Shown here: positions 12,123 to 62,287 of the stretch, in pieces
How positions within the stretch are numbered: the stretch's first letter is position 1
How the letters are laid out: each line of letters starts with the position of its first letter
Assembly (NCBI GenBank): GCA_029262535.1
Contig: JAJCZF010000074.1
Span: forward strand, 8,395-72,394
Reading direction: 5' to 3'
Length of the DNA stretch: 64,000 nucleotides
Source: Deltaproteobacteria bacterium
Lineage (GTDB): Bacteria; Desulfobacterota; GWC2-55-46; JAJCZF01
Translations under genes and position numbers: made by a program
The notes under the pieces: model-generated
Databases searched by the model: none
What the model was told of the DNA's origin: nothing
Seen by the model: the letters and a program-made list of their open reading frames with translations, nothing else

Positions 12123-12125
12123 CCG

Positions 12126-15625: not shown

Positions 15626-15678
15626 CTTCTTTTTATTATTCTCGGAAATGACAAGTCCCCTTTAAGGTATCAAACCTA

Positions 15679-26320: not shown

Positions 26321-26344
26321 GAGCCTCTATCGCGGAGTTATATT

Positions 26345-26935: not shown

Positions 26936-26952
26936 TTTTTTACGGATAAGAG

Positions 26953-28533: not shown

Positions 28534-28546
28534 AAGGGATCTTACT

Positions 28547-29161: not shown

Positions 29162-29237
29162 AAGGTTTTTGATAATAGTTTTATATATCTATATATGAAA
29201 AGAGCGCAATATTAAATATTAGAGGAGGAGCCACAAT

Positions 29238-31427
29238 ATGAATTTTCTCGCAAATACGCGGATCAAGAACAAACTTATCATTATGCTTATCATCCCGGTA
29301 GTAGGGCTTTTATACTTCTCGGTTTCGGGTTTTGTGGATAAGCTTCGGGTCGCGGGCGAGATGGATTCGCTCCAGGAGCTATCGGCCCTCTCTGTTAAGG
29401 TAAGCGAGTTTACTCACGAGCTTCAAAAGGAGCGTGGCAGGACCGGCTCTTTTCTTTCAAGCGGCGGCAAGACCTTTGCAAAGGAACTGGAGGCGCAGAG
29501 GGCTCTCACAGATGAGAAGCTGACGAATCTGAACAGTTACCTGGTTGGTTTTGGCAAGTCGGGCTTCGGTGATGAGTTTTCTACGACGCTCAATATCGCC
29601 CTGTCGGCTGTATCGGGCTTAGGGGTTGAGCGCGCCTCCATAAGCCAACTCAAGATTAAGAGCGCTGACGCCATTAACTTTTATTCCGAAATAAACGAAA
29701 GAATGCTCGACGTCATAACCTCCTCAGCCACAATAACTACAAGTACGCGTATTTCCGGTCACCTTTCAGGGTACTATTTTCTCCTGAATAAGAAGAATAA
29801 TCTTGGGCTTGAGAGGGCCATTTTAAGCAAGGTCTTCCTGAACGATAGTTTTACCCCTGAAACGCGTACCGCCTACGATAAAGTCGTAAAGGCGCAGGAA
29901 ATATATATGCGTCAGTTCTTCTCTTACGCGAGCCCTGAACAGAGAGACCTTTTGAGGGATACGCTCAAGGGGCGTGCCGTGGAAGAGACCGCAAGGCTCA
30001 GGGCAATAGCTATTGAAAAGGAATATGTCGGAGGCTTCGGCGTGGACCCCGGCCAGTGGTTTGATACCGTAACGGGTGAGATAGATCTCCTTAAAAATGT
30101 CATAGGAAGTATCTCGCAAGAGCTTGACTCCGATACCGAAGCGATGAGGGCCGCCGCCAATACCGGCCTAATCGTCTTTGCCATAATCATAATAGTCTCC
30201 ATAATAGTCACCTTCGGGCTGGCAATAAATATTACGCGTAATATCTCAAGGCAGGTTCGCGACCTGGTCGAATCGATAACCGACCTTGCGAGGGGCAACC
30301 TTTCAAGACGTGTAAATGTGACGAGCGCCGACGAGATAGGTCAACTCGGCGAGGCCCTTAACGATATGGGGCAGAAGATCGAGGAGAGCGCCGAACGCGA
30401 GCGCCGTCAGGCCGAGCGCGAACGAGACGCGGCCAACCAGCTTAAGCAGGGGGTCGAGATTATACGCGAAGGTGTCGGCAAGATCTCAACCGGTGACCTT
30501 AGGCATCAGTTCAGGATTTCGGGTAATGACGCTCTTTCGGAGCTTTCCGGCCACTTGAATGGAATGTCTGCGAGCCTTGCCGGTATGGCGGCTGAAGTAA
30601 GCGAGGCGAGTGGGGCCTTGAATAGCGCCATAACCGAGGTTCAGAGTTCCGTGACGGCGCAGTCGTCTGGAACCTCCGAGCAGGCGGCTTCAATTAATGA
30701 GACCGTTTCGACGCTCGAAGAGATAAGGGCTACGAGCAAGCAGACGCAAGAAAAGGCCATGACGCTTGGAAGCTCGGCTGAGCGTACGCGAGAAGAAGGC
30801 GTGCGCGGCGCCGGTTCCGTCGAGGATACGGTCGAGGCCATGTTGTCCATACGTGGCAAGGTTGAGTCGATTGCAGAAAATATACTGGCTCTAAGCGAGA
30901 AGACTCAGCAGATAGGCGAGATAACAACGACGGTAAATAACCTGGCGCAGCAGCTTAAGATGCTCGCCCTCAACGCCTCTATCGAGGCCAGCAAGGCAGG
31001 CGAGGCAGGAAAGGGCTTTGCCGTTGTCGCGGCAGAGGTCAGGGAGCTTGCCGAGCAGTCGCACCAGTCCACTCAGCAGGTTCAAAAGATTCTTCAGGAT
31101 ATCCAGAACGCCACTGAAAGGGCCGTCATGGTCACCGAAGAGGGCACCAAGGGTGTTGACGAAGGCGTTTTTCTTGTTGAGCAGACCGGTTCCATCATAT
31201 CGAGCCTCTCCAAGGTTATTAGCGAGAGCGCGATAGCGAGTCAGCAGATAGTGGCGGCCGTAAGGCAGGAGGGCGCGGGCATCGACCAGATAGCCACGGC
31301 GATGACCGACATTAACAAGGCCACCAGCCAGTCGGTTTCGTCCACACAGCAGACGATGGAGGCCGTGCGTAACATGGGCGAGATAGCGGCCAAGTTAAAA
31401 GAGAGCGCCGGGGTCTACAAGGTATAA
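29238..31427 (+). CDS. Methyl-accepting chemotaxis protein with NIT (nitrate/nitrite-sensing-type) domain and HAMP
   Basis: N-terminal TM, a NIT-like region (HELQKERGRTGSFLSSGG), a second TM, HAMP, and the invariant signalling hairpin LALNASIEASKAGEAGKGFAVVAAEVRELAEQS. Confidence 0.85.
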   Translation: MNFLANTRIKNKLIIMLIIPVVGLLYFSVSGFVDKLRVAGEMDSLQELSALSVKVSEFTHELQKERGRTGSFLSSGGKTFAKELEAQRALTDEKLTNLNSYLVGFGKSGFGDEFSTTLNIALSAVSGLGVERASISQLKIKSADAINFYSEINERMLDVITSSATITTSTRISGHLSGYYFLLNKKNNLGLERAILSKVFLNDSFTPETRTAYDKVVKAQEIYMRQFFSYASPEQRDLLRDTLKGRAVEETARLRAIAIEKEYVGGFGVDPGQWFDTVTGEIDLLKNVIGSISQELDSDTEAMRAAANTGLIVFAIIIIVSIIVTFGLAINITRNISRQVRDLVESITDLARGNLSRRVNVTSADEIGQLGEALNDMGQKIEESAERERRQAERERDAANQLKQGVEIIREGVGKISTGDLRHQFRISGNDALSELSGHLNGMSASLAGMAAEVSEASGALNSAITEVQSSVTAQSSGTSEQAASINETVSTLEEIRATSKQTQEKAMTLGSSAERTREEGVRGAGSVEDTVEAMLSIRGKVESIAENILALSEKTQQIGEITTTVNNLAQQLKMLALNASIEASKAGEAGKGFAVVAAEVRELAEQSHQSTQQVQKILQDIQNATERAVMVTEEGTKGVDEGVFLVEQTGSIISSLSKVISESAIASQQIVAAVRQEGAGIDQIATAMTDINKATSQSVSSTQQTMEAVRNMGEIAAKLKESAGVYKV

Positions 31428-31431
31428 GTCC

Positions 31432-33753
31432 GTGGAATTTGATAAAGAGACATTAAAGTTACTGGTCGATACGTTAGAGGGTGAATTAACAGACCAGATA
31501 GAGATCATAACCGACGGCCTTTTAAAGCTTGAAAAGGGTCCTTCGGGAGACGAGCGCCGTTCTTCGCTCGAGGCAATCTTCAGGGCGGCTCATAATATCA
31601 AGGGAGCGGCCCGTGGCGTTGGTGTTTCGACCGTTGCCGAGATATCGCATCACATGGAAACATTTTTTAGCGCCCTTAAACACAAAAATATGAATCCCGA
31701 ACCTGAACATATAGACCTCTGTCTTGAGGCCGTGGACCGTATGACCGAGGCTATGAGCGCCTTTGCGGATGAGACGCCGGACTCTTTTGACGCCAAGGAA
31801 CTATATAACAGGCTCGACCAGGCTATAGCGTCGGGTAGGTCTACAAAGGATCAGGTTTCGAAAGAGGAAACCGCGCCACCCAAAAAAAAAATTAAAGAAA
31901 GAGCTGTAGCCACCCCATCTTCCGTGGCACCTCCCTTGCCGGAACCGGATAGAGTTCAGGCGGGTAAATTAAAAAAAGAAAAAGAGGGCGAGGCGAGGCC
32001 TGCCGCGCATGTTTCAGCGGCTGTTGAGGCCATAAAGGTTACAGTTGATAAGATAGAAAAGATCGGAGCGCTTACCGAAGAGCTCCAATCGGCAAAGATA
32101 GAGAGCGAAGATCACCTGAAGGATCTGAAGGGGGTCGCCATAAACGCCCGCGAGCTTGCGACGAGTTTTTCCATGATCAACCCGGTCGTAAAGGGCGAGA
32201 TGAGAAGGAGACTCTCCCCGGACGCAGTGGCCTTTGTCGATGAGACCATGGAGACGGTGGCGACGCTTAGCGAGAATGCCGCAAGGGTCTCCAAGGCGGT
32301 CGAGAGCGCGGTGAATAGTTTAGGTCTTGTTACGTCGTCACTCGTTAACGATACAAGGATGCTCCGGTTGGTTCCGGCCTCGACATTATTAAATTCGGCG
32401 GGAAGGACGATTCGCGATCTTGCCCGCGAGCTTGGCAAAAAGGTAGATATTGAGATAAACGGCGCCGAGATAGAGATGGACAGGGCGGTGCTCGACGGCC
32501 TTAGGGACCCACTGAATCACCTGCTCAGAAATGCCGTGGATCACGGTATTGAGCCCCCTCTTGAAAGGATTAAGGCCTTTAAGCCTGAGACGGCGAAGGT
32601 GATAATAGATCTTGAGGGCCGGGGCAGCACCATCATATTATTTATAGAAGACGACGGTGGCGGTATCGACGCCGGCAAGATTCGCGCCGCCGCGGTAAAG
32701 AAGGGCGTTACGACTGAGACCGAGGCCGAGCGCCTTAGCGACGAAGAGGTGATAAATTTAATCTTCCGTCCCGGTTTCTCATCAAAGGAGATCGTGACGA
32801 ATATCTCGGGCCGGGGCGTCGGCCTTGATGTGGTTGGCACTAACCTTCACAGGCTCAAGGGCTCGGTCGCCGTAAGCACGGAGTTTGGCTCGTGGACGCG
32901 TTTTACGCTTACGCTACCGTTAACGCTCGTAACCGAACGGGGACTGATGGTGCGCGCCGGGGGCGCGGAGTTTGTTATCCCGACCAACTCGGTAAACAAG
33001 GTGATGGAAATCGGGCCGGACGATATAGTCGATGTGGAGGCGAGCCAGGCGCTCTTGATAGACGGTGTGCCTATCCCCATACGAGGACTTGCGACCGCTC
33101 TTGGGCTCGAAGAGAGAGAGCCTGCTTCCTCAAAAAGGCTACCGGTGGCGGTGCTTTCGGGTGTGCGGGGTTCGGTGGCCTTCCTGGTGGAAGAAGTCGT
33201 CGGCGAGCGCGAGATAGTTATCAAGACGCTTGAACCGCCACTATATTCGGTAAGAAATATAACCGGGGCGACCCTCACGGGTCGCGGTGAGATAATAATG
33301 GTCCTTAACCCGATCGACCTGGTTGAGAACGCCCTTGGCACAGGACTCAGCGACAGGCTCTTTGATGAGCCGGGCGAGGACGAAGAGCAAGAGATAGAGA
33401 TCCTGGCGGTGGACGACTCTGTTACGACCCGGACGCTTCTCAAAAGTGTGCTTGAACATAGCGGTTATACCGTGACCACAGCCGTTAACGGTAAAGAGGC
33501 GTGGGAGATTTTACAGAAGAAAAGATTTGATCTTATAGTTACCGACTTGCAGATGCCAATCATGGACGGCTTTGAGTTTACCGAAAGGGTAAAGACGAAC
33601 GAAAAGTTCAAAGAGGTCCCTGTTATAATGGTTACCTCGCTAACGAGCGAAGAGGATAAAAAACGCGGCATCGAGGTCGGAGCCGACGCATATATTGTAA
33701 AGGCCCAGTTTGAAAGCAGGGCGCTTTTAGAGGTAATAGAGCAGTGGGTATAG
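31432..33753 (+). CDS. cheA: Hybrid CheA histidine kinase with C-terminal receiver (WspE-like)
   Basis: Hpt AHNIKGAARGVG, N-box HLLRNAVDHGIE, G-boxes DDGGGID and GRGVGLDVV, a CheW-like domain, and REC (ILAVDDS, DLIVTDLQMPIMDG). Confidence 0.9.
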   Translation: MEFDKETLKLLVDTLEGELTDQIEIITDGLLKLEKGPSGDERRSSLEAIFRAAHNIKGAARGVGVSTVAEISHHMETFFSALKHKNMNPEPEHIDLCLEAVDRMTEAMSAFADETPDSFDAKELYNRLDQAIASGRSTKDQVSKEETAPPKKKIKERAVATPSSVAPPLPEPDRVQAGKLKKEKEGEARPAAHVSAAVEAIKVTVDKIEKIGALTEELQSAKIESEDHLKDLKGVAINARELATSFSMINPVVKGEMRRRLSPDAVAFVDETMETVATLSENAARVSKAVESAVNSLGLVTSSLVNDTRMLRLVPASTLLNSAGRTIRDLARELGKKVDIEINGAEIEMDRAVLDGLRDPLNHLLRNAVDHGIEPPLERIKAFKPETAKVIIDLEGRGSTIILFIEDDGGGIDAGKIRAAAVKKGVTTETEAERLSDEEVINLIFRPGFSSKEIVTNISGRGVGLDVVGTNLHRLKGSVAVSTEFGSWTRFTLTLPLTLVTERGLMVRAGGAEFVIPTNSVNKVMEIGPDDIVDVEASQALLIDGVPIPIRGLATALGLEEREPASSKRLPVAVLSGVRGSVAFLVEEVVGEREIVIKTLEPPLYSVRNITGATLTGRGEIIMVLNPIDLVENALGTGLSDRLFDEPGEDEEQEIEILAVDDSVTTRTLLKSVLEHSGYTVTTAVNGKEAWEILQKKRFDLIVTDLQMPIMDGFEFTERVKTNEKFKEVPVIMVTSLTSEEDKKRGIEVGADAYIVKAQFESRALLEVIEQWV

Positions 33754-33778
33754 TTCTTCAGGAAGGACATATGAGCAT

Positions 33779-34825
33779 ATGATCAGGATTTTGATAGTAG
33801 AAGATTCGAATGTCGTTGCGTTGCTGTTGAAGGCAATCTTTGAGAAGGCGCCGGATATGGAGGTCATTGGGCGCGCAAGCGACGGGGCAGAGGCCGTGGA
33901 GTTGAATAATACACTCCGTCCCGACCTGATAACCATGGACATTCGAATGCCGCTTATGGACGGTTTCGAGGCCACGCGTAATATTATGGCCGACAGGGCT
34001 ATTCCCATAGTGGTCATAAGCGCAAGCGTGGACGACGAAGAGATGCGTACTACGTTCCGGGCCATAGAGGAGGGCGCTCTCGCCGTCATTGAGAAGCCGC
34101 GCGGGGTGCTTCATGAGGATTTTGATAAGATAAGCACAAACCTCATCGAGACGGTACGCGCCATGAGTGAGGTTAAAGTCGTACGCCGGGTTGCAAGGCA
34201 GACGCAGCAGCAATTTACTCCTCAGTCGAGGCCTGTAAAGCGAAAGGATTTAGCCGCCATCGAGCTGATTGCGATAGGCTCGTCGACCGGCGGTCCGCAG
34301 GCCCTTCAGACCATACTTTCGTCGCTTCCAAGGGATCTTGCCGTACCTATAGCCATTGCGCAGCATATGTCCCAGGGCTTCCTGGGCGGCATGGTGGACT
34401 GGTTAAAACTCAATGCGTTGCTTGATATAAAGGTAGCAGTGGATGGAGAACCGCTAAAGAACGGCGTTGTCTATTTTGCCCCGGAGGATAAGAATCTGAA
34501 CTTTATCCGTTCGGGCGGTTCTATACATGCCTCCGTGATGGAACCAGCGCCAACGGATCGCTTTGTCCCCTCCGCAACGGCGCTAATTAGCTCTGCGACA
34601 GATGTCTGCGGCAGGGGGGCGGTCGGAGTCGTCCTGAGTGGGATGGGCAACGACGGAGCCGAAGGCCTGTTGGAGCTTAAGAGGGCAGGCGGCCATACGA
34701 TCATTCAGGACGAAAAGAGTTCGGTTGTATTTGGAATGCCCGGCTCTGCGTTGGCGCTTGATGCCGTGGAAAAGATTGTCGAACTGCATTTGATGGCGCC
34801 TTACATATCCAGTCTTTTAAGATAG
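33779..34825 (+). CDS. cheB: CheB protein-glutamate methylesterase (REC + esterase)
   Basis: REC (ILIVEDS, DLITMDIRMPLMDG) plus esterase motifs GSSTGGPQAL, QHMSQGF and GMGNDGA. Confidence 0.9.
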   Translation: MIRILIVEDSNVVALLLKAIFEKAPDMEVIGRASDGAEAVELNNTLRPDLITMDIRMPLMDGFEATRNIMADRAIPIVVISASVDDEEMRTTFRAIEEGALAVIEKPRGVLHEDFDKISTNLIETVRAMSEVKVVRRVARQTQQQFTPQSRPVKRKDLAAIELIAIGSSTGGPQALQTILSSLPRDLAVPIAIAQHMSQGFLGGMVDWLKLNALLDIKVAVDGEPLKNGVVYFAPEDKNLNFIRSGGSIHASVMEPAPTDRFVPSATALISSATDVCGRGAVGVVLSGMGNDGAEGLLELKRAGGHTIIQDEKSSVVFGMPGSALALDAVEKIVELHLMAPYISSLLR

Positions 34826-34833
34826 ATCAGAGG

Positions 34834-35268
34834 GTGAGAAGGCTAAATAAAAAGGATGCGGCCTCAATATTTAAGGCCTACAAGAAAGAGTTAGCGGAGC
34901 GTACCACCCGTCTTAATGTCGCACTAAAGGGTGTGGGGCGGGAGGGGCCTGGCGAGGGGCTCTTTGATATTATTCATCAGGAGTTCGACAGCCTCAGCGG
35001 CGCATCAAGGGCAGCGAATCTTACAAGGCTTGAAGAAGTCTCTCGACAGGCAGCTTCTTTTGCCAGACTTTTGAGAAACAAGGTAAAAGAAGGCGTTGAG
35101 GTAGAGAAGGAATTCGCAGTCTTGAGACTTCTTTGTGTGGAGCTCGGGGCGCTTTCTTTAGCCATGGACCACGACGCGGCCCCTGATTGGCCCGCAGAGC
35201 CGGGTGAGAAGCTTGGCAGCGCACTTGTAGAGATAGATCAATACCTTCGAGTGCGTGACCGGGAATAA
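34834..35268 (+). CDS. Hypothetical helical protein, possible Hpt-like phosphotransfer module
   Basis: The 144-aa protein looks helical. IIHQEFDSLSGASRAANL loosely resembles the Hpt HxxKG motif. GTG start. Context is the only other support. Confidence 0.35.
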   Translation: MRRLNKKDAASIFKAYKKELAERTTRLNVALKGVGREGPGEGLFDIIHQEFDSLSGASRAANLTRLEEVSRQAASFARLLRNKVKEGVEVEKEFAVLRLLCVELGALSLAMDHDAAPDWPAEPGEKLGSALVEIDQYLRVRDRE

Positions 35269-35367
35269 ACCTATTGATTTTGTGCTATTATTGTGTGAAA
35301 CTATATTTTGCGAAATACCGTATGGACTATAGTTTTATGGAAATTTTAACCGTTGGAGATATCTTCC

Positions 35368-35721
35368 ATGAGGATCCTCATAGTTGACGATAGCATAACT
35401 TCAAGGTTGCTCTTTAAGGCCAACCTCCCGCCCGGATTGGAAGTCGATCTGGACGAGGCAGGCGCATGCGAAGGGGCCTTGTTGAAGATCGCCGACAATG
35501 AGCCCGATCTAATATTTCTTGACTATAACCTGCCGGGAAAGAACGGTGTAGAGATAGCCCGCGCCATACGGGCTGCCGGGTGCCAGGGCAAGTTCGTACT
35601 GCTTACCGCAAACCTTCAAAACAGCATAGTGGACGAGGCCAAGGAAGTGGGTTTCGTTGCGGTTCTGGAAAAGCCCATTACGCGGGAGAATGTGGAATAT
35701 ATTCTTAGCGAGATAGGTTGA
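35368..35721 (+). CDS. cheY: CheY-like single-domain response regulator
   Basis: MRILIVDDS, DLIFLDYNLPGKNG and EKP. I prefer ATG 35368, with GGAG 9 nt upstream, over TTG 35353. Confidence 0.8.
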   Translation: MRILIVDDSITSRLLFKANLPPGLEVDLDEAGACEGALLKIADNEPDLIFLDYNLPGKNGVEIARAIRAAGCQGKFVLLTANLQNSIVDEAKEVGFVAVLEKPITRENVEYILSEIG

Positions 35722-35722
35722 T

Positions 35723-36322
35723 ATGGAGCTTACCGAAGCACAACTGGACGCCTTAAAAGAGATTGCCAACATAGGCATAAGCAGAGCGGCGACGCAGCTC
35801 TCTCTTCTTTTGAGCGATAAGATAGTGATGAATGTGCCCAATGCGCGTATCACTCTTTTGTCCGAGGCATCTAAAACGCTAAATACCACGGATGAAGATA
35901 TGGCCGTGGTCTATCAGGATCTCTCCGGCGAGCTTGCGGGACGCGCCCACCTGGTTCTTAATACCGAGGAAAGCAAGGTCCTCGTCCATGCCCTTCTCGG
36001 TAATGTGCCAACGCTTAGCGGGGCCGACCTTCTGGCCTACGAACACGAGGCGATGACCGAGATCGGCAACATCGTCATCTCTACCTGTATCTCCACGCTC
36101 GGCAACCTGCTTGACGGCGAGATCTTTCTTACAGTCCCCACTTATTCTGAAAAATCAGCTCTCGATATGTTCGCCGGCGGCGGTAAGGCCAAGGATGTGC
36201 TTATAATGGAGACCGTGCTTAAGGCCACCAATAAGAATGTCGAAGGTATGCTCGTCTTGGTATTAACGCTTGAATCGGCAACGGACCTTCTCGATATGCT
36301 CTCCGGGTTACTTGACAGCTAA
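35723..36322 (+). CDS. cheC: CheC/CheX-family CheY-P phosphatase
   Basis: Two ExxN sites in the typical context: LKEIANIGISRAATQLS and MTEIGNIVISTCISTLG. Confidence 0.7.
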   Translation: MELTEAQLDALKEIANIGISRAATQLSLLLSDKIVMNVPNARITLLSEASKTLNTTDEDMAVVYQDLSGELAGRAHLVLNTEESKVLVHALLGNVPTLSGADLLAYEHEAMTEIGNIVISTCISTLGNLLDGEIFLTVPTYSEKSALDMFAGGGKAKDVLIMETVLKATNKNVEGMLVLVLTLESATDLLDMLSGLLDS

Positions 36323-36380
36323 GCGGCCCTTAAGAAGAGTAAATATAGACTCTGTGCTAAGGTAACTACTGGATTATACT

Positions 36381-37331
36381 ATGGAATCTGAGCTTCCGGT
36401 TAAGGATATTGTCAGCAGGTTGCCCATTGGTGTTTTTGTTCTGGATGTCAATCATAAGATACGGCTCTGGAATAAGTGGCTTGTCGATAAGACATCAATG
36501 GCCGAGCAGGAGGTTTTGGGTAAGACCCTCTCCGAGTTATACGTCGGCCTTAACCACCATCGTTTTACCTGGGCCGTTGATCATGTTATCGCCAACAGAT
36601 CTCCGCAGATCCTGAGCCAGGCCCTTAATAGTTATATCATCCCCATACATGTCGAAACGCACGGTCCGCGTAATATTGAGTTTATGCAGCAGTACGTGCA
36701 GATAGAACCTGTCACCACTCATGGTCACGTGTATGCAGTGGTTAGCGTGGTGGATGTTACCGAGTCCATGGTGCGTTCGTCAGCTCTCGCGGACCTTACT
36801 ACAAAATATCAGCAAGAGTCCATAGTCGACCCTCTTACCGGCCTTTACAACAGGCGTTTTATGTGGGGCTGGCTGGTGCCTCAGCTCAACCTGGCCAGGA
36901 GGGAAGAGGCTTCGCTCGGGTGCATTATTATCGATATCGATCACTTTAAACGCTTAAACGACGACTTTGGCCACGATGTAGGAGACAAGGTCCTCAAGAG
37001 CTTTTCAAGGTTACTGAAGGGCGGGCTCCGCGATTCGGACATTATGGTGCGTTACGGTGGAGAGGAGTTTGTCGTGCTACTTCCGTCCATCGATCTCTCA
37101 GGCGCAAATGGTACCGCTATGAGGCTTATAGAGAGGCTTCGCACCACCGCTTTATCTAACTTTAAGGTAGGCGAGATTTCATGTAGCATGGGTGTCTCCT
37201 CTTTTGATCCTAATGACCCCATAAGCGGCGAAGAACTTATCAAATTTGCCGATAATTGCCTCTACCGGGCCAAGGAGACGGGTCGCAACCGGGTCGTCTC
37301 AATGGCTGATATCGAAAAAGAGTCCGAGTAG
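36381..37331 (+). CDS. PAS-GGDEF diguanylate cyclase
   Basis: N-terminal PAS-like domain, active site RYGGEEF, and an I-site RDSD exactly five residues upstream of GGEEF. Confidence 0.85.
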   Translation: MESELPVKDIVSRLPIGVFVLDVNHKIRLWNKWLVDKTSMAEQEVLGKTLSELYVGLNHHRFTWAVDHVIANRSPQILSQALNSYIIPIHVETHGPRNIEFMQQYVQIEPVTTHGHVYAVVSVVDVTESMVRSSALADLTTKYQQESIVDPLTGLYNRRFMWGWLVPQLNLARREEASLGCIIIDIDHFKRLNDDFGHDVGDKVLKSFSRLLKGGLRDSDIMVRYGGEEFVVLLPSIDLSGANGTAMRLIERLRTTALSNFKVGEISCSMGVSSFDPNDPISGEELIKFADNCLYRAKETGRNRVVSMADIEKESE

Positions 37332-37398
37332 CGCCCGAACACCCTTCCCGGTTCAGTATTTCCAGCCTTCTTATCCAAAAAATCCTTTTGTTTTCTGA

Positions 37399-37417
37399 CT
37401 GTTTATGATATAAACAG
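37399..37417. promoter_or_regulatory. Perfect 8-bp-arm inverted repeat CTGTTTAT-gat-ATAAACAG (candidate operator)
   Basis: Read directly. It lies in the AT-rich 163-nt gap, 78 nt upstream of the TPR/beta-barrel gene start. Confidence 0.35.
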
Positions 37418-37494
37418 TGCCGTATGAGTAGTAGTAGTTTCTTTTCTTTTTTCTGTTAATGATTCGAAAATATTATTGAAAACGGGATTATTTA

Positions 37495-39033
37495 ATGGCT
37501 AAAGTTTCAGACCGAAACCTTTTGGTTATACCGCTTCTTTTTTTCTTTCTATCTGCCTTTTACGCGCCGCCCATGGCGCGCGCCGGTAGTTCGGACGACG
37601 CGGACTTTCAGCGCGGCGTGACCGACTATCGAAGCGAGAACTTCGAGGAGGCCGCCGCTTCGTTTGAAAAGGCCCTCCGTAATGACCCGGCCTCGACCGT
37701 AACCTCTTACTGGTTAGGGCTCTCCTATAAGCAGATGCTCGATTACAAAAAGGCTCTTAAAAACTTTTCAAATGCCGTGGAAGGGCAGCCCGCCGTAAAG
37801 GAGGCCGTCTTCGAGCTTGCAGAGATGAACTATCATTTGAAGAAGTACGACGAGGCCCTTGGAAATATCCTTCTGGCGGAGAAGATCAATATAAGACCGG
37901 CGGAAGTGGCCTTTATGAAGGGGCTTGTCCTGTCGGAGAAGGGCAAGGCGACTGAGGCTGTTGCTTCTTTTGAAAAGGCCAAGGCGCTAGACAGCTCGAT
38001 GGCCCAGTCAGCGGATTACCAAATGGGCGTGGTGCTCGTAAAGCTAGGCAGGCTCAAGGAGGCCGACCAGGTTTTTAGGGGTCTTATAGTCGTCGACCCG
38101 AACTCCGATCTTGCTATCTTCGCCAAGCAATATGTTGATATGCTTGAAAGCAAGGCGATACGCGACAGGCCGTTAAAGCTAACGCTCTCGACCGGTTATG
38201 AGGCCGATAGCAATGTCATATTAAAACCATCCGACCAGAGCGCCGCCGGCGCCATTACCGGCGAGAGCGACGGGCGTTTTGTCGTTAACTTTACCGGTGA
38301 GTACGCGTTACCTGCAAAGGGCAAGTACAATGTCAAGGGGCAGTATTCATTATATCTAACAAATCATGGCACGCTCGATACCCACGATGTCGAGAGCCAT
38401 ACTTTTGCAATTATCCCTTCTCGCCAGGTGAAGAACGGTGTAGTGAATCTTCATCTCGGGTATAACCACACGCTCGTAAAACGCGAGCAGTATCTGCGCA
38501 CCATTACGCTGGCGCCGGGTTATACCTTCTCTCTAAAGCCGGGGCTGCTTGGTCAGTTAGGCGCCAGGTACCAGCATAAGGATTACAAAAAATCTCCGCT
38601 CATACCCGAAGAGGACCGCGACGCAAACGAGTATGCGTTAAACGGCGGTCTCATGTATCTCTTTATGGAGAATAAAGGGGTCTTAAGCTTTAGGTACGAA
38701 TATAATCGTGAAAATACCGATGGCGTAAACTGGAACTACGAGGGGCACAGGGCGACGGCCAGCCTTACGTTGCCGGTGCAAAAAATTCTGGACGAGAAGG
38801 CCCGTATTTCCGCCTCTACCGGTATATACAAACAGCGTTACGAAAAAAGATCGACCGTCTTTGGCATGAAGCGCGAGGACCTGAACTGGACTGCGTCTTT
38901 TTCAGCCTCTTACGATGTAAAGAAGAATGCCGAGTTACAGCTCCGCTACGCATATACGCGAGCCGATTCGAATGTAGCGGTATACGACTATAGAAAAAAT
39001 GTCACAGGCGCATATCTGATTTACAAGTATTAG
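37495..39033 (+). CDS. Outer-membrane protein: N-terminal TPR domain + C-terminal beta-barrel (Slam/DUF560-like, or PgaA/BcsC-like)
   Basis: Signal peptide ending PPMARA, ~180 aa of TPR-like helix pairs, then ~290 aa of alternating beta-strand pattern (LTLSTGYEADSNV...) ending in the aromatic terminal signal AYLIYKY. Confidence 0.65.
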   Translation: MAKVSDRNLLVIPLLFFFLSAFYAPPMARAGSSDDADFQRGVTDYRSENFEEAAASFEKALRNDPASTVTSYWLGLSYKQMLDYKKALKNFSNAVEGQPAVKEAVFELAEMNYHLKKYDEALGNILLAEKINIRPAEVAFMKGLVLSEKGKATEAVASFEKAKALDSSMAQSADYQMGVVLVKLGRLKEADQVFRGLIVVDPNSDLAIFAKQYVDMLESKAIRDRPLKLTLSTGYEADSNVILKPSDQSAAGAITGESDGRFVVNFTGEYALPAKGKYNVKGQYSLYLTNHGTLDTHDVESHTFAIIPSRQVKNGVVNLHLGYNHTLVKREQYLRTITLAPGYTFSLKPGLLGQLGARYQHKDYKKSPLIPEEDRDANEYALNGGLMYLFMENKGVLSFRYEYNRENTDGVNWNYEGHRATASLTLPVQKILDEKARISASTGIYKQRYEKRSTVFGMKREDLNWTASFSASYDVKKNAELQLRYAYTRADSNVAVYDYRKNVTGAYLIYKY

Positions 39034-39069
39034 CCGCACAGGCACACAGGTGTGCTTATATTTCGCGGA
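39034..39069 (+). repeat. Gene-end palindromic motif, copy 1 (ccGCACAGGCACACAGGTGTGCTTATATTTCGCGGA)
   Basis: It begins at the first base after the TAG of 37495..39033. The core is the near-palindromic GCACAC-AG-GTGTGC, followed by a T-rich tail and CGCGG. Confidence 0.7.
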
Positions 39070-39406
39070 GTAAATTTTAGGCGCTGATAGTTTCATTGTC
39101 CGCGCCCAAAGTATATAGAGCAATCTTAATTTAGAAGTATCAGCTTCGTCGAAAGACGAGCTTTGTAATAAAATAGTAATACCCCCCTTCTTAATAGCTA
39201 AATGGAGGGCGGGAGATATGAAAGGCGACAGGCGAAATGCCATTGTAATATGGCCGAGCCTTTCACGGACGCGCTTATTAAAGGTACTGCCTACCGGGGG
39301 GTAACGCGGTATCTTTCGTATTACTCCAGCGTCTGTTCTCACCCGTTTCTCTCCATTTGTCTACAAATAATATTTATAATCAAAATAACCTATATAGGGG
39401 TTTGCC

Positions 39407-39490
39407 ATGAAGTACGCCAAAAGACCTGTCTCCGCGATAGCGGTCCTTTTTCTCATCTTATTATCCGGTGTGTTTAGCGCGGCCTGGGCC
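39407..39490 (+). other. Sec/SPase-I signal peptide of the giant protein (aa 1-28)
   Basis: MKYAKRP + hydrophobic core AIAVLFLILLSGVF + SAAWA|D. No lipobox Cys. Confidence 0.7.
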
Positions 39491-42400
39491 GACATAGCCG
39501 GGACGCTCACGGCCCTTGAGGGCCGGGTGGATATTTTGAGGCCGGGCGAGGATAGGGCAACCCCCGCAAAGCTCTTCGACAAGGTAAGTGTCGGAGACAT
39601 TATTAGGACAAAGAGCAAATCCAAGGCCGAGATAACCTTTGTAGACGATTCGGTCATAAGGCTTGCGGCGGGTTCGCGCCTTGAGATTCAAGAGTATCTC
39701 TTTAGTGGCGGGGAGAGAAAGAGCGGCGTGGTTAAGCTCTTTAGAGGCAAGGCTCGTTCTATAATAAAGAGGCAAAAGGGAGAAAAGGTGGGCCGCTTCC
39801 AGGTCAAGACCCCGACCGCCGTCGCCGGAGTGCGCGGTACGGACTTCTTCGTATTTCATCAGCTGGGCCTTACCGGCGTAATGGTCGTAAACGGTATCGT
39901 AGACGTATTTAACCTCGATATACCCGACGTGGTCGTTACCCTGACCGCCGGAACCGCCACAACGGTCGAGGGTGACAAACCGCCGACCCCGCCGCGCGGA
40001 GCGAGCGAAGGCGAGGGCGGTAAACATGAAGACGAAACGACGCCTCTAGAGGACGACGGCGAGGGCGGTGATGGCGAGGGCGAGGGTAGTGCGGATGAAG
40101 GCGGCTCCGGCGAAGGCACAGACGCGACAAGGATTGCCGCAATCGCGCCAAGTGGTGTTGTGGACCCGGTAGATACCGGCACCCCTGAAACCCCGATAGA
40201 GCCGGTTATCGTAGAGCCGGACCTTATACCTTATGAAGGCGAGACCGGCGACACGACCGCGCCAACGGTAAATATCACGAGCGGCCCGACCCTGATAACT
40301 ACCACAACGACAGCGGGTTTTACCGTTACGACCAACGAAGACCCAACCACATTCAGTTATACACTCGACGGTGACGTCGTAGGTGGCCTTAATCTTGTCG
40401 GCCTGGCGCCCGGTGTGCATATCTTTAGGGCCGCCGGTGCGGATGAGGCCGGCAATATCGGCTATGACTCCTACACATGGTTCTCCGGCACGGCCGGTTC
40501 GACCTTTACAGGTAATTCCTACGGCACGGGCTCAACCTTCACAGGTACCGCTCTTGCGGGTGATGTCTATATGGGAACCTCCACAGACGGCTCATGGATG
40601 ATGGATATCGCTGGCGACTGGGTCGGCCCCTCCGGCGCGACATGGAATATCGACGCGGGAGGAGACGGCTTTGACGACACCGGCCTTATATGGGAGGGTT
40701 ATTGGGTAAATCAGATGGAGGGTACATACGGTTCCCCCGTATCTGGAGTTGCACCCATGTCCGGCCCGGCAGGGCTCTTATATATTACGGAAGATTATAT
40801 CGCCTCCGGCGCGGGCACGGCTACCGGCTCGGTAGATACCGGGGCCGGAACCTTCGCGCTCGGAGTGATGGGATTCGATACATATGCGGAGATACCTCTT
40901 CTCTTCGATGCTGGCATTGATGGTACATTTCTGCACAGTAGCGCGGGCAATATCGAAGGCGATCCGGCAAGCCCTGTAGTCGGCCTCATGGGCGGGGTCG
41001 ATCCGTTATGGACCGGAACGCCGGGGGTACTTTTCATTGGTCAGTATGAAAATCCGGGCGCGAGCCGTTATTTCTCGGCCCTTTTGGAGGGCGGCACCTC
41101 GGATGGAGGAGCGTTACTTGGTTATATAGGCGGCGTATCTCCGGACGCGGAGAATATCCGTGTTCTGGCCGGTCTGCTCTACGTAAAGGACGATGGCGAG
41201 GGCGGTAATACCGCAGGATACGCGCTCTCCGATAATATAGCCGGTATATTCTACCCAGAACTCGGTATGTGGGAGACTACCGGGACTTTTTCAACAGTTG
41301 ATACCGGTCCGACTACAGCGACACCCGGAGAGCTCTTTGACGGAAGCGTCTCTATAGATCAGAATAGCGGCAACAACCCGGTCGTTGGCGATATTACGGG
41401 AACGTTGGCCTTAGAGTCTTTTTCAATAGAAGATCAGGATTCGGGCATATTAGTCGGCGCGGGCGAGGGGTTATTCACGGCCACGCCGAGCGCGTCCTGG
41501 TCTGCCAGGACGGGCGGAACTGCCACGGACGGCCCGGATAGCTCTTACTACATAACCGAGATAACCGGCACGAGCTGGGCCGGTGACAATATGGGCGGCA
41601 CCTTCGCGGGTACGGCACTTAGCGCCGACAGCATCACCGACTTTTCTGGCGACATTCAGGGCGTATACGAGGTAACGGGCAGCGGCAACTGGCAGGCCGT
41701 GATGCTCGGCACGACCGAGAGTAGCCCGATTCTCTTCGGCGGCGACGTGGACGGGGAGTTCCTCGAGGCCCAGAGCCCGCTCGTAGGCAGCGGAACGCTT
41801 ACAGGTTTTATGGGTAGCGACCTTCCATTTAATCCAGGCGGCACGACCTCTTTACTAATGATGGGTGACTATACGAATCCATGCGCGGCCCGTATAGTGG
41901 CTGGAGACCTCTCCGGTACGACCGCCGACGGCGGCACTTACCTTGGTCTAATGTTAGGGCTTGCTCCGGGTGCGGCCGATACGACATTCGACGCTATTGC
42001 CGCGGGCCTCTATATAAATCCCGATGGCGTCGGCGGTTATACCGTTGGAACCTTCCTAAACGGCAGCCCGATAGATGGCTCCTTCTTCTCTGAGCTTGGC
42101 ATGTGGTCCGCTACGATGCCGCTTGGCACATTCGCAACCGACGAGGGTGTGACTACGACGGTGCCCGGTGACCTATACGACGGCAGCCCGGAGCTATTTT
42201 ATAATGCCGTGGACGGCAGGGTCGGGGGCGACATAAATGGCCATCTCGAACTGGACTCCCTAATGGTGGACGGCATGGCCGGTCCGGTACTAATCGGCGC
42301 GGGCGGCGGCTTCTTTGATACGACACCCGGCCCCGGCGCGTGGGCGGCTACGGCGGGCGGAAGCATAGACGCGGGCAACCCGTGTGCGCCGGTCGGTTTA

Positions 42401-45400
42401 TGGGTATCCAATATAAGCGGCTCTTCGTGGGCCGGAGACGAGTTTGCGGCAACCATTTCCGGGCATTCCATAGATCAGATAAATCATACGACCTTTACAG
42501 GCGATATCTTCGGTATCTACGAGATAACCGGTAGCGGCAACTGGCAGGCCGCCACGACCGGGCGAGCTATCTCTACCCCGCTGGCCTTTGTGAATGAGGT
42601 TGGGGCCGAGATATATTCGACAACACTTCTTCACGAAGGAGCCTATACATATTCCGACGGCGGCAAGTACGAATACTCCTTCCGCGAGGACGGCAGTTTT
42701 GGTTTTGGCAATAGAAGGTTGAACGACGCAAGTTACGTAAAGGACGAATACCAGGCCGGTGGCACGTATAGACATATTACCAGCCCGCCATATAACTCCA
42801 CGACCTCGACATGGGACCCGGCTCTATTCGATACGACAACGCTGGCCGTAGCGCCCGCGCCGCTCGACGCCGGTACGGTAACTTTCGCCTTCGATAATGT
42901 CACACCGGTCGGCTCTTCGAGCGGACTTCTTAACGGTTATATGGGCGGAGTCGATTCGCTCTGGGTCGGCACCGATATAGCGGTCGATTTCGTGGGAGAA
43001 TATGAGAATACCGGCTCAAGTATCTTTTACGACCCGAATATCATAAGCCACGATTATATCACCGGCGAGGGCTCGACATACGCGGGCGGCACCTACCGCG
43101 GAATATTTGCGGGTATCGACCTCGCTACCTCGCTTGACGGAAATTTTTTAGGGATATATATAGCGCCGAGCACAGAGGTCGGTTTCCTTCACGGCTCGCT
43201 CTCCGGCGCGGCAAACCCGGCGATAGGCATGGCAGATATGACCGGACTCTTAAACAGGACACCGGTCGCACCGTCGCCTAGTCCGATCAGCCTTGACTTC
43301 GCTACCAACTTTATCGAGGGTAACGATATCTGGACAACCGGCTTTGCCGGTACCTTCGACGGTGGCGGCGCGATTGCCATACCTATGTGGGAGGGCTGGG
43401 GCAATAGCATCAGTCTTGTAGACTTTACCGCGCAAAGAGATATAGGCTGGGGCATATACGGCCTCGAGCTCTTCGGCGGATACGATACGCCTACTCCGAC
43501 ATGGACGGCCATCACGGGTGGAGAGGCCGAGTTCGGCCTGCTTAAACATAACGTAAGGCGCTCCGCCACCTACGACTATACAGATGGCAGCTCTTATTCC
43601 TATCTCTTTGACAGCCATAACGAATATCGTTCAAGAGATACCGGCGAGTCTACATTTACCTACCCCGGCGGCGGCGATACGATAACGACTAGCTATTACT
43701 CAAACGGCACGACGAAGGTTGTCGATACGCTTGCCGGTACGACGACTTACGGCGCGTGGAGCCCGGCGGCTTTCGAGCAGTTCGACCTTGAAACCATACC
43801 GGTGGTCGCGGGTGAGACGTCAAGCCTCACGACGAGCGATGAAATAGACGCGCATGATAGGAACTACGGCTTCTGGCTGGCAAGTGTTTCTGACGGAACT
43901 CTTACGGAAGGCAGGCTCGACGGAACTCTTTCGGGCGGCCATTACATGACCTATAGCTCGCTAGGCACGCTCGACGGCACGCTTTTAGGTACCATCAACC
44001 CAACACTCGGCACATTTGATTCCGCCATTGTCGGTACGCGCGCCGACACAATACCGCTTACGCATATGACCGAATTCGGGGACGCTATATATAAGACACG
44101 CCGTCAGATAGAGACCGAAACGCGTTATACGAACGGTGAGTACTATACCAGCGAGCACGACCTGTCCAATATCGAAGGCGCTTATAGCTACCATAACGCG
44201 GCTGGCACGTCTAGCTCAATGACCTATAATAACGGCGGAGATACCTTTGGTTACGACTCGGCGACAGGCCTTCGTAGCTACGGCTTCTGGGACCCGACCT
44301 CCTTTGATTTATCTACACTGGCCACGCTTCCTGTTCCTCCGGCGGGCCATTCTATCCTTGCCGAGGGCTACGAGCCGTGGGATCTCGGATGGTATATCGG
44401 ATGGCAGTGGGGTTACATGGGCGGAACCGACACGCTCTGGTCCGGTGTGGATATACCGGGTAAGATCATGGGTGAGTTCGGCGACTCCATAACGCCATAC
44501 CCCGGCCAGAATATGAACGGGGTCTTTTATCACGAAACCCTATCATCCACTAACGAGCTGGTACGCTCCGGCGACCCTGCTGAGAATATGACATTCGACG
44601 GAGGCGCATATGTCGGAGACCTCGGCGGCATACGCATCGGTAGTTCGCTCGAAGGCGCCTTTATCGGCCTCTACGTGGACCCGGCCGGTAACGCCGGCGT
44701 GCTCACCGGAGACTTTCTCGGTACGCAGTTCACCGATATAAGCCTATTTGAGATGGACGGACTCTTTAACAGGCAGCAGATAGAGGCCGGCGCTTCGACC
44801 AACACACCGGCTTCGGCCTTGAACGGAAGTCTTATAGACGACTGGTCCTTTGCTTATGGCATTCAGGGCGACTTCGCCGGGTCGGGCTCGCTTTCCAGTG
44901 GAGCTTCCGGTAGTGGCTGGGGCAATATATATACATTTAACGACCGCGTCGGAGACGACGCGCTCGATTGGGGTACGATTAGCTTTATGGACTTCGGCCA
45001 CGCCTCCTCGCCAGGGCCCGACTGGGACGCGGTCTTCGCGGGTAGTGGGCGTTTCGGTATCTATAACGCCTATACGACCTACGAGGGCAGATTAAATTAC
45101 ACCGGCGGCGGCGAGTACAGTTATTCATACAGGCACGACGGCTCCGAGGCCGTGGTACATCTCATCCGCGCCGACGGCACGACACGCGACGTAACATACA
45201 ACCCGGACGGCACGCTGGGTGTAGTGGATACGCTTCTTGGCAACTCTTCGGGTTTTTGGACACCGGGTGACGACCTGTCATTTCTGGCCCTGCCCCTTGA
45301 GCTTCCCGGTGGAGAGACGGCCTACCCCGATCCGACCGACGGACCGAGCGCGTCGGATACTGGCACGGCTAATGAAGGTTACTACCTCTTAAGTGTAGCC

Positions 45401-48400
45401 GACGGCACGCTCGTCGGAGAACGCATGGCCGGGACATCGACGGGCCGTTATATATCGGAGAGGACGTTAGGTACGATAGACGGCGACCTGCTCGGAACCT
45501 ACGACCACGACGTAGATACCTTCGAGGTATTTAATTACGGTAGATGGCAAAAGACCGGTAACCTCTCGCATGTGGCAGATCTCCGGTCCGAAACGAATAC
45601 GATGGCCCACGAGCATGTCGGTTACTTTGACGATACCAGTTCCGTAAGCGGCTCTTATGAATATACCTATCACGAGGACAACAGCTTCGGTATGGCCAAG
45701 CTCACGCGGGCCGACGGCACATATACGCAGGTTACATATAGCCCGAACGGGCGTTTGGATGTCGTCGATACCGGCGGCGCGGGCAATACCAGTAATAGCT
45801 GGTGGGACAGGGGTACGATGGACCTGTCCACACTTGCCACCCCCCCGACCGTGGCGGGCATGACATTTGTAAACCTCAATACGATTGATGATTACTTGAT
45901 ATACCAGACGAGCGGTAGCTCGTTGGACGGGCTCATGGGCGAGATACCGTCGCTCTGGACCGGGCCGGGAGTCGGTATGCCAATTACCGCGCTCGGTCAG
46001 TACTCTGGTAATTACAACGGAGTATTCTACCAGGACTTTGTAGCGTCCAACGACTATACGCAGGGTAATAATGTCGTCGCCACATACGACGGCGGCGCCT
46101 ACGTCGGCCTCTTGGGCGGCGCGGACGTAAGCAGCCGTGGAGTTCTCGACGGCCTCTTTTACGCGATATATATGGACCCGGCGGGCGATAGCGGCATCCT
46201 CTCTTCTACCGATCTCGCCGGTACGAGCTACCGCGACGCCGCGGCCTTTGAGCTGGACGGCACCGTTACGAGAGAGCAGTTCGCTACCTCTGCCGAGGTT
46301 GGACTTACACCGGCCGACATGGGTTTCGCCGTTATGTACGGCAGTATGACCGGAACGCTTACGGCAGAGTTCGACGGTGGCGCTTCGCTTAACGTAACTC
46401 CGGGCTTCTCGGCCAGCGAGACACTAAGCATTGTAAATAACGCGACCCTCACCGGACAGGAGTGGGGCATCTACGGCATCTCTCTCTTCGGTACTATGGG
46501 CACTCAGACCACCACATGGTCCGGCATTGCGATGGGTCAGGGTGATTTCGGCAGGGTCCAGAGCGGCGCGGTAATGGTGGACGACCCCGGCTACTGGTAC
46601 GCCGACGTAACGAGCGGCACATTCGCAAGCGAGGCGATGAGCGCAGAGCTCCTCGGTATGTTCATTACAGACAACAAGGCCGGTATCATAGAGGGCCGGA
46701 TGCGCGGTTCATATAACGACGGCTTGGATACCTTCCAGCTGGCGAGCCTCGGTAAGTGGGAGGCCCTCGCGCCGACATTCTGGGGCGATATTACCGGCGG
46801 CCAGTTTTACGACCTTAACGGTGGGCTTGTCACACCGACCGCGCTTACGTCATTAACAGGAAGATACGCGGGCGGTTTCGTAACGCCGCACTTCGCGCTC
46901 AGCGAGGGCATACTCGCCGGTGACGCCGTTACAATAGGCAAAAAACTATTTACCGCTGACGTAACCGGCGCGTCCGATATAGGCGCGGTTATGGCGGGAC
47001 ATATGGTCGGCGTTGACGACGCCTTAACGGCATCGATTGCAACTATCTACATAGCCCCCGACGGCGGCGGCGGACAGACCGGCGGCTTATACCAGAGCCG
47101 CTCTATAAATGGAGAGTTCCAGCCGACCCAGATCTGGGCCGCCGGGGCCTCATTTAGCGAGACGGATAAGGGTCCGGTCGATGTCGCTGCGGCAAACCTT
47201 GCGACCTCGATATGGACGACCTCTTATATAGAACCCGGCATCGGCACCGTAACGGGCGGTTCGTTAGAAGGCGACTTCCTTGGTTCGGGCTCCATACTCG
47301 GAGATGTAAGGATAAGCACGAACTCCATATACAATAACGCCACGCATGTGACCGCTCCGTGGGGCACATTCGAGATGGCCATCGACAGCAAGGGCTTTTT
47401 GAATCCATTGGTTTCTAGCACTTGGAACGGTCAGGCTCGTGGCTGGAACGCCTTCGGCGCCTACTGGGACCCTGCCGCAAACGCGGGCGCGGGCGGCTTT
47501 ACGGACGACTTCGGCTTCTGGTCGGTCGATATGGTTAACGGCAATTGGAATGCGGACGGCACGCTTACCGCTGAGACGGCAAGCCTCTTTATGACACCCT
47601 ACAAGCTCGGGATAGTCACCGGCGATCTCTTCGGCGTACACGAGACGGGTGTCGCCGGAGAGCTTGGCGGACTCGGAGTTGGCACGTGGGAGAGCGACTG
47701 GCTCGCCTTTAGCGCTATCTTACAAAACGGCGCTACCGCATGGGCCGACGGACCTGTAAACGGCATCTTTGGTGATAACGGCGCGGGCGGCTTTGCCGAC
47801 ATCGACAACCTCTGGGTATTCGCCGGTTCGGCAATCGCCCCGTGGGACTGCCCGGCCACAAGCTGTGCGCCGCAGTCTACAACGGTAAACTACCTTGGCA
47901 TGCTCGGTTACGACCTGGCAGTTATCTCCCCCGGAACTTATATATGGGACTCGGAGCTTGAGATCAACGACTACGCGGAACCTGGAAGGACGACCACATA
48001 TGACGGCGGCTCCTTTTTGGGCTTTACCGGCGGGCTTCTCTCGGACGGCACGGTGGACGGACGCGTGGCAAGCATCTATATCGACCCCGAAGGCAACGTC
48101 GGTTACCTTACCGGTACGATAGACGGCGTTTACGACCCGGCGACACTCTACGCCCCGGGCGGCGGCGATTACTTTATGATGGACGCGAGCGGCCCTTGGA
48201 ATCCGACCCAGATGGTGAGCGCCGGCGCACTCGGCCTCGGCCCGGCCAACTTTTATAATAACGTAAGAACGAGCGCGGGCCTAACCGCGACGCTCAGCGG
48301 TGAATTCACCGGGCCAAGCGGTTCTATCGACGGAGCGGCCTACTCGCCGGGTGTTGGAGAGATTGCCGCGTGGACACGTTACATAGACGGCGAGCCGTGG

Positions 48401-62279: not shown

Positions 62280-62287
62280 CTGTGTGC

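Follow-up and report, generated by a model that had tools for sequence, protein, structure and literature searches.

A TPR-barrel outer-membrane protein and its FecR-headed neighbour as a candidate split NsrA-like envelope module

What the CHASE2 domain, a common sensor module of bacteria, responds to is to our knowledge still unknown. As far as the literature found shows, a single outer-membrane partner of a CHASE2 sensor has been studied experimentally, namely NsrA of Sinorhizobium meliloti, reported as the outer-membrane receptor required for signalling by the CHASE2 cyclase CyaK (PMC7529298; PMC13001267). FecR-domain proteins are found in comparable settings: in Burkholderia a LysM-FecR protein adjoins a CHASE2 kinase (PMC5192318), SMc02177 of Sinorhizobium, which has a FecR domain, shares the Clr/cyclic AMP (cAMP) pathway with the CHASE2 cyclases there (PMC5498481), and a four-gene cluster of Campylobacterota encodes a CHASE2 adenylate cyclase, a phosphodiesterase, a FecR protein and a tetratricopeptide repeat (TPR) protein (PMC9239204). 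Here we describe two adjacent genes in a 64,000-nucleotide (nt) stretch of DNA from a Deltaproteobacteria bacterium (Desulfobacterota; GWC2-55-46; JAJCZF01; assembly GCA_029262535.1, contig JAJCZF010000074.1, forward-strand positions 8,395 to 72,394), referred to below as the window. One encodes a 512-amino-acid (aa) outer-membrane protein (OMP) with a TPR arm and a β-barrel, and the other a 6,991-aa partner headed by a FecR domain, referred to below as the giant. With moderate confidence, the pair can be read as a conserved two-gene envelope module in which domains like those of NsrA are split over two proteins, with the OMP as its outer-membrane half. This compact two-gene FecR/TPR-barrel version is now seen to be widespread.

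The adjacency of the OMP gene and a FecR-headed gene is near-obligate. In all six neighbourhoods obtained by exact protein look-up, the next gene downstream, in the same orientation, has a FecR head. When a single genome of each species was scanned with a nine-sequence OMP alignment, 80 loci with OMP relatives came to light, distributed among Thermodesulfobacteriota, Nitrospirota, Nitrospinota, Omnitrophota, Planctomycetota, Geobacter-type Desulfuromonadales, Myxococcota and one Competibacteraceae genome. Culturable carriers among them are Desulfothermus okinawensis and Geobacter sp. OR-1 (L054), the latter with a 1,445-aa partner and a CHASE2 protein. When called open reading frames (ORFs) were searched with a FecR-head profile, 60 of the 68 relatives that are full-length and have at least 400 nt of downstream DNA proved to be followed on the same strand by a FecR-headed ORF (57 within 700 nt), a pairing spread over at least six phyla. 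Four of the eight exceptions (L083, L087, L088 and a second ORF in L055) match the OMP through its TPR region alone and therefore probably lie outside the family. Sequence comparison indicates that these partners are true homologues of the giant: their FecR heads are 36-41% identical to its head (BLAST), and the last 200-500 aa of long partners also align to it, as in locus L002, where aa 691-1193 of the partner align to aa 6481-6989 of the giant at 32% identity. Given the near-invariant gene order across several phyla, the pair is predictable from sequence. An earlier note on this DNA had tied its interpretation to the co-occurrence of the OMP with giant FecR-domain proteins; co-occurrence with FecR-headed proteins is borne out in related genomes, but the size is not, as the 45 complete partners from other loci measure 230-2,170 aa (median 661) and the giant is about three times as long as the longest of them.

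The OMP begins with the segment MAKVSDRNLLVIPLLFFFLSAFYAPPMARA/GSS, a Sec signal peptide read directly from the sequence, and is not a lipoprotein, since there is no cysteine at its N-terminus. TPR families cover aa 35-210 (Pfam; TPR_2, E = 9e-20), and an AlphaFold2 model built from 32 homologues (mean predicted local distance difference test score, pLDDT, 88.3) has 11 helices at aa 36-223 followed by exactly 14 β-strands at aa 227-511. The protein ends in YLIYKY, and the last residue is F or Y in 30 of the 32 aligned homologues; a C-terminal F or Y is the usual outer-membrane β-signal. ORF, Pfam and AlphaFold2 evidence thus agree on the layout that the earlier note had read from the letters (signal peptide, TPR helices, barrel and aromatic end), with a TPR domain of about 190 aa, and the opposite strand of the gene is riddled with stop codons. 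Loops are the least conserved part of most outer-membrane proteins, unlike in this one, where the predicted outer loops (conservation 0.58) exceed the strands (0.52) and the periplasmic turns (0.38). Four of the predicted outer loops, L1 (NVxLKP), L4 (E-x-R), L5 (G-x-N-W) and L7 (N...Y), carry the most conserved motifs and between them 11 of the residues that 90% or more of the homologues share. Together with the flexible linker of nearly every partner, these conserved loops are compatible with a functional lumen or outer mouth.

The giant is predicted to carry a Sec-type signal cleaved at AWA/D, and its sole Pfam match is FecR (PF04773; aa 65-165, E = 3e-14). NCBIfam models detect FecR-type heads only, with weak similarity to LipL45, Lsa33 and Lsa19, and the autotransporter, RTX, type IX C-terminal domain and PEP-CTERM models of Pfam and NCBIfam were all unmatched. 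Judged by its sequence, the giant is therefore a protein with no recognisable export module of its own, in keeping with the earlier note, which had credited it with a Sec signal only. Autotransporter-type self-export was considered and rejected (no Pfam or NCBIfam model, a non-aromatic C-terminal residue, and a template-modelling (TM) score below 0.2 to autotransporter barrels). The repeats, about 6,400 aa in all, are acidic, Gly/Thr/Asp-rich and Cys-poor, have no match in Pfam or among PDB sequences, and were revealed by chunked phmmer, self-BLAST of the giant being blind to them owing to composition filtering. The C-terminal tail was modelled with AlphaFold2 (last 250 aa; pLDDT 79, pTM 0.79) as an all-β meander with two helices, from an alignment limited to nine sequences because word-indexed protein searches with the tail gave two and six matches only. 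Foldseek with this model found nothing at E ≤ 0.001; the C-lobe of TbpB (E = 0.03) and fHbp (E = 0.06) were both in the top five, with TM below 0.2, and such matches are no evidence of a Slam-cargo fold. Four database proteins that match the tail domain without a detectable FecR head (P0061 and P0062, 269-270 aa; P0063 and P0064, ~400 aa) may be fragments or free-standing tail domains. PDB sequence searches with the OMP, the FecR head, the repeats and the tail gave TPR proteins or nothing useful.

Partners in other loci vary widely in what follows the head. The shortest (230-330 aa) consist of a signal peptide, the FecR head and a disordered Pro/Thr/Ser/Gly/Glu-rich tail, and nothing more. In nearly all partners the head gives way to a low-complexity linker. 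Behind this linker, 26 of 65 partners have the motif [LIP]P[IV]T[ED], against 1.2 expected from shuffled sequences (among others in L002, L003, L011, L018, L038, L053, L054, L061 and L078); the giant has LIPYE at the equivalent position, and the motif could be a TPR-binding peptide. Of the 45 complete partners, 21, none shorter than 390 aa, share a conserved C-terminal domain some 200 aa long, and the other 24 lack it. By the count made for the tail domain itself, it lies exactly at the C-terminus of 24 complete partners, and the domain ends in F-x-G-x-A-A-G-T ... G-x-F-S-G-T-G-A-G-x-x-K/R. Long partners also carry Ig-like (Big_13) repeats, of a type that Pfam describes in bacterial surface proteins, and the L004 partner (11695-14631, 978 aa) has two tandem FecR domains (~aa 75-173 and 240-370). 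In seven loci (L009, L011, L025, L027, L031, L037 and L058) the partner gene has three companions, most often immediately downstream, namely a SurA_N-like gene (marginal Pfam score), one for a small HAMP protein and one for a 180-aa unknown, and in L008 an OmpH/Skp chaperone gene (10443-10955) directly follows it; SurA_N-like or Skp genes stand beside the partner in 8-9 loci. Because the partners are mostly of modest size, the shortest being head plus linker, moving large cargo is unlikely to be the ancestral job of the pair.

After the partner itself, the commonest neighbours are CHASE2 sensors, found in 27 loci in all and in 21 of the 60 paired loci by clustering of neighbouring ORFs on truncated flanks. 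Their outputs are adenylate/guanylate cyclase or SpoIIE phosphatase domains, and they accompany short and long partners alike. A class II cAMP phosphodiesterase is encoded in 11 loci, and genes for GAF-HD proteins and Crp-type regulators recur. With CHASE2 cyclase and cAMP phosphodiesterase genes as neighbours, the related loci resemble the setting of NsrA and of the Campylobacterota cluster, and clusters of this kind accompany such genes in many bacteria. On pSymB, the product of the gene upstream of cyaK (located by tblastn) is 1,197 aa long and bears the annotation 'FecR domain-containing'; it has a FecR domain at aa 66-160 and TPRs at ~aa 417-531 (Pfam) or ~aa 330-580 (BLAST to the OMP TPRs), followed by a barrel for which the published prediction covers aa 600-1200 (PMC7529298). 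The same three blocks, FecR, TPRs and outer-membrane barrel, are in the window split over two adjacent genes, and the envelope proteins of both systems rely on Sec alone. Their fusion in NsrA supplies a gene-fusion argument for joint action of the three blocks, and places FecR on the periplasmic side of the barrel. The systems differ in that the window barrel has 14 strands in ~290 aa, as against ~600 aa in NsrA; in that the linker, repeats and C-terminal domain of the window FecR protein are not in NsrA; and in that the window pair is preceded by a Wsp-like Che/GGDEF operon.

The description that we prefer for the OMP family is that of the outer-membrane half in a CHASE2-associated, split NsrA-like envelope module. 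Within it the window locus is an extreme case, since its partner is a giant and a chemosensory/cyclic di-GMP (c-di-GMP) context takes the place of CHASE2. In such a module the barrel would be a dedicated outer-membrane site for a partner built of a Sec signal, a FecR head, a disordered linker, repeats ranging from none to ~6,400 aa and, in long versions, a C-terminal β domain. The FecR head and/or the linker may dock on the TPR arm in the periplasm, where the head would stay as an anchor and signalling handle. In long variants, including the 6,991-aa giant, the linker might pass through the barrel and leave the repeat region outside the cell. A still more specific and rather speculative version, which we regard as unlikely, would make the giant pair a novel form of display: a Slam-like 14-strand barrel threaded by the linker, with the FecR head retained in the periplasm as a plug and a handle for signalling, and with repeats plus tail, up to ~6,700 aa, outside. 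Such a protein would span the outer membrane as a tethered sensor or adhesin, reporting in other genomes to CHASE2 cyclases and here to a Wsp-like c-di-GMP pathway. From sequence, translocation by the OMP is a candidate function beside mere anchoring. The locus raises the question of how a 6,991-aa Sec-only protein reaches or keeps its place in the envelope, and what part a 14-strand Slam-like barrel has in this. If the barrel conducts or anchors its partner, the uses of small TPR-barrels would extend beyond the export of lipoproteins and hemophores, and surface display would be tied directly to cyclic-nucleotide signalling; otherwise, the pair keeps its value as a genomic marker of an uncharacterised envelope signalling pathway.

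Several points weigh against the split NsrA-like description. Contact between the OMP and its partner is something that we infer, and the threaded topology is pure inference. The parallel with NsrA is one of domain composition and context rather than shared barrel descent, since the barrels are not detectably homologous: hhalign of the OMP family profile against NsrA aa 570-1197 gave a probability of 0.3%, and by BLAST only the TPRs and the FecR domain of NsrA resemble the window pair. The TPR protein of the Campylobacterota cluster is likened to the OMP by the published description alone, and no CHASE2 gene is present among the scanned ORFs of the 64-kb window. Finally, the NCBIfam names of the FecR-headed Leptospira proteins Lsa33 and Lsa19 include the word 'adhesin', and both are reportedly surface-exposed, as one would expect if the entire partner were exported along with its head.

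Whole-partner export is the substance of the main rival, a true Slam or type XI-like translocon, in which the barrel would move the Sec-exported partner, head and all, to the surface or into the medium, with the C-terminal β domain as targeting signal; we consider it doubtful. Slam barrels have 14 strands, those of BcsC and PgaA 16 and that of AlgE 18. The count of 14 in the AlphaFold2 model, named in the earlier note as a check, therefore fits Slam and excludes the 16-18-strand polysaccharide porins. The OMP further resembles Slam in its N-terminal periplasmic domain of generic TPRs and in the adjacent gene for a candidate substrate with a Sec signal only. The rival also draws on the tail domain, which nearly half of the complete partners have, on the SurA_N-like or Skp genes next to some partner genes and on the adhesin names of the Leptospira proteins. 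Profile searches are equivocal on barrel membership. SlipAM (PF04575, DUF560) matches the OMP weakly but above its cut-off (24.4 bits against 22; aa 318-502, profile positions 99-278 of 288), and is outscored by both BBP2_2 (30.8 bits, over the C-terminal 60 aa only) and DUF2860 (30.1 bits); among the 32 homologues BBP2_2 matches 25, DUF2860 16 and SlipAM 11, with best E-values of ~1e-10 to 1e-11 for each (1e-11 for SlipAM). TPR_Slam (PF24575) scores 22.3 bits in the OMP, under its cut-off of 35.2, and matches 14 of the 32 homologues at E ≤ 1e-3. Judged by these scores, DUF2860 and BBP2_2 are at least as near to the barrel as Slam is. The OMP is thus at most a candidate member of DUF560, and is treated here as a separate family inside one barrel superfamily with Slam. 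In a barrel-only phmmer search of 1.84 billion representatives, 883 clusters (50% identity) matched at E ≤ 1e-3 and 362 at E ≤ 1e-10, and among the best 150 of these 362 nearly all are ~500 aa long with the barrel in the C-terminal half. Structural comparison does not discriminate the class of the OMP, because in a Foldseek search of the PDB BcsC comes first by E-value through a shared TPR-plus-barrel layout and no Slam structure is among the matches; the best barrel superpositions are with the 14-strand OmpG and CymA (target-normalised TM 0.55-0.68). The partners lack the signature of Slam cargo, as over half of the complete ones have no tail domain and the tail fold has no significant match; all of them share a conserved N-terminal FecR head, and many are tiny. 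The OMP family also lies mostly outside Proteobacteria, where type XI systems were described, FecR partners are unmentioned in the type XI literature examined, and the NsrA fusion puts FecR on the periplasmic side of the barrel (PMC7529298). What stands of the Slam-like pair envisaged in the earlier note is thus the layout, the strand count, the weak SlipAM match and the pairing itself; a Slam-like translocon with a new class of substrate goes beyond this evidence, given the barrel's equal nearness to other families, the small partners, the tail without a cargo fold and the CHASE2 context, and a non-lipoprotein cargo would not be new to Slam, soluble hemophilin-type cargo having been described already (PMC8406197; PMC12282271).

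Still less probable is a purely periplasmic signalling complex that exports nothing, with the barrel as a receptor or porin for an outside cue that the partner relays to an inner-membrane sensor. Such a relay is possible for the short partners, whose head and linker need no export, and it would accord with the recurrent CHASE2, phosphodiesterase and Crp genes, with NsrA, for which exposure is proposed of the barrel loops only (PMC7529298), and with the FecR domain of Escherichia coli FecR, which reportedly acts in the periplasm against an outer-membrane protein (PMC5498481). It is hard to square with 6,991 aa, as ~6,400 aa of acidic, Cys-poor repeats would be difficult to house in the periplasm, and neither the surface-type Big_13 repeats of long partners nor a conserved C-terminal domain without an obvious periplasmic role is expected of it. 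An exopolysaccharide porin of the PgaA/BcsC/AlgK-E kind with a functionally unrelated FecR neighbour is close to refuted and may be regarded as very improbable. The diguanylate cyclase gene upstream of the OMP gene and the first place of BcsC in the Foldseek search would suit such a porin, but the superposition on BcsC is poor (TM 0.3-0.4, root-mean-square deviation above 10 Å) and driven by the TPR-plus-barrel layout, the NCBIfam BcsC model scores 13.9 bits against a cut-off of 858, and the strand number is 14 rather than 16-18. The invariant neighbour is a FecR gene and not an exopolysaccharide gene: the scanned ORFs of the window include no polysaccharide synthase or glycosyltransferase, the annotated recurrent neighbour clusters include no exopolysaccharide family, and the one fetched locus with such genes beside the pair (L003, with divergent Wza/Wzc/flippase genes) already encodes a Wza exporter. 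The porin match with exopolysaccharide genes nearby that the earlier note had named as fatal to its proposal has therefore not materialised.

Beyond NsrA and Slam, the pair invites comparison with three other systems. Two-partner secretion (type Vb) and LapA/LapE offer a functional analogy only: a dedicated OMP gene lies just upstream of that for a very large repeat protein, an N-terminal globular domain is the most conserved part of the giant and, as for Lap, the window locus stands in a c-di-GMP context. Unlike type Vb systems, the pair has no POTRA domain, 16-strand Omp85 barrel or TPS (haemagglutination activity) domain in either protein by Pfam and NCBIfam, and unlike Lap it has no TolC-like channel and no type I signal, the giant using Sec. 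LipL45, Lsa33 and Lsa19 of Leptospira are likewise Sec-exported envelope proteins with a FecR domain, and the giant head matches their NCBIfam models (E-values of 5e-16, 2e-12 and 7e-4 among the three), with scores far under the curated cut-offs (58.7 against 420 bits for Lsa33). The Leptospira proteins differ in being small (model lengths of 182-391 positions), and LipL45 is a named lipoprotein.

Features of the pair and of the operon preceding it are collected in Table 1. The operon encodes, in order, REC-HD_5, CheW, CheR-TPR, CheW, a chemoreceptor (MCP) of NIT-HAMP type, CheA-CheW-REC, CheB, a weak Hpt, REC, a CheC-like protein and PAS-GGDEF, and the chemoreceptor carries a nitrate/nitrite-sensing (NIT) domain. 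The PAS-GGDEF gene ends 163 nt before the OMP gene. Because it stands directly behind a Wsp-like operon ending in a diguanylate cyclase, the module here is probably tied to c-di-GMP-controlled surface behaviour, and the operon is possibly a regulator of the pair or co-transcribed with it. The region is rich in c-di-GMP turnover genes, with two REC-HD_5 genes: one opens the Che operon (25175-26320), and the other, encoding an HD-GYP-type response regulator, lies with a PAS histidine kinase gene at 13479-16797 on the minus strand.

Table 1. Positions of the two genes, their domains and the adjoining operon within the window
Feature	Position	Strand	Evidence
Wsp-like chemosensory operon, complete, ending in PAS-GGDEF diguanylate cyclase	25175..37331	+	Pfam
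OMP gene, ATG start, 512 aa: signal peptide, TPR arm, 14-strand barrel	37495..39033	+	ORF list, translation, Pfam, AlphaFold2
OMP signal peptide, ~aa 1-30, cleavage likely after ARA, no lipobox cysteine	37495..37584	+	Sequence; model helix aa 11-22, low confidence
OMP periplasmic TPR domain, aa 35-223, 11 helices, ~5 TPR units	37597..38163	+	TPR_2/TPR_16/TPR_1/TPR_8; model helices 36-223; PDB sequence matches to consensus TPR proteins
OMP 14-stranded β-barrel, aa 224-512, aromatic C-terminal β-signal	38164..39030	+	Model strands; weak BBP2_2, DUF2860, SlipAM; OmpG/CymA superposition; loop conservation; barrel-only search
Spacer between OMP and giant genes, 373 nt, predicted structured RNA	39034..39406	+	Minimum free energy -115.8 kcal/mol, z = -3.95 against shuffles
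Giant partner gene, 6,991 aa, no internal stop	39407..60382	+	ORF, translation, composition, head and tail homology to other partners
Giant signal peptide (aa 1-28) and FecR head (~aa 30-195)	39407..39991	+	PF04773; 36-41% head identity; NCBIfam Lsa33/LipL45 similarity
Acidic Gly/Glu/Asp/Pro-rich low-complexity linker, ~aa 196-275	39992..40231	+	Sequence; equivalent linker in nearly all partners
Repeat region, ~aa 300-6700, super-repeats of ~350-370 and ~275-280 aa	40304..59506	+	Chunk-against-whole phmmer, offset analysis
Non-repeated C-terminal β-rich domain; last ~250 aa modelled, last ~200 aa conserved	59630..60379	+	L002/L008 BLAST, 25-tail alignment, AlphaFold2

The spacer between the two genes is unusually long, that of most related loci being 10-30 nt, and contains a weak terminator-like hairpin at 39145-39160; Rfam recognised neither a c-di-GMP riboswitch nor any other family in the spacer or the window. 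Just past the giant, genes for a HlyD-family adaptor and a MacB/FtsX-type permease (60563-63970, minus strand) run convergently. Type I secretion of the giant through them was considered and rejected on account of their convergent orientation, their MacB/FtsX type and the Sec signal at the N-terminus of the giant; because of that signal they are judged unrelated to its export.

A tblastn search of plasmids with the OMP gave a Streptomyces TPR protein as its sole match. Some OMP relatives elsewhere are 660-690 aa long and carry extra domains (P0014, 682 aa; P0016, 669 aa; L013, 358-2436; L016, 1444-3453), which precomputed Pfam annotation identifies as OmpA (PF00691) in P0016 and as PF08239 and PF06347 in P0014. 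Both window proteins are on record in NCBI, and an independent public assembly (Logan SRR15505517) is identical across window positions 37187-43382. Elsewhere in the window, a separate 420-aa porin-like outer-membrane protein (Porin_4/BBP2) is encoded at 12126-13388 on the minus strand and appears unrelated to the pair.

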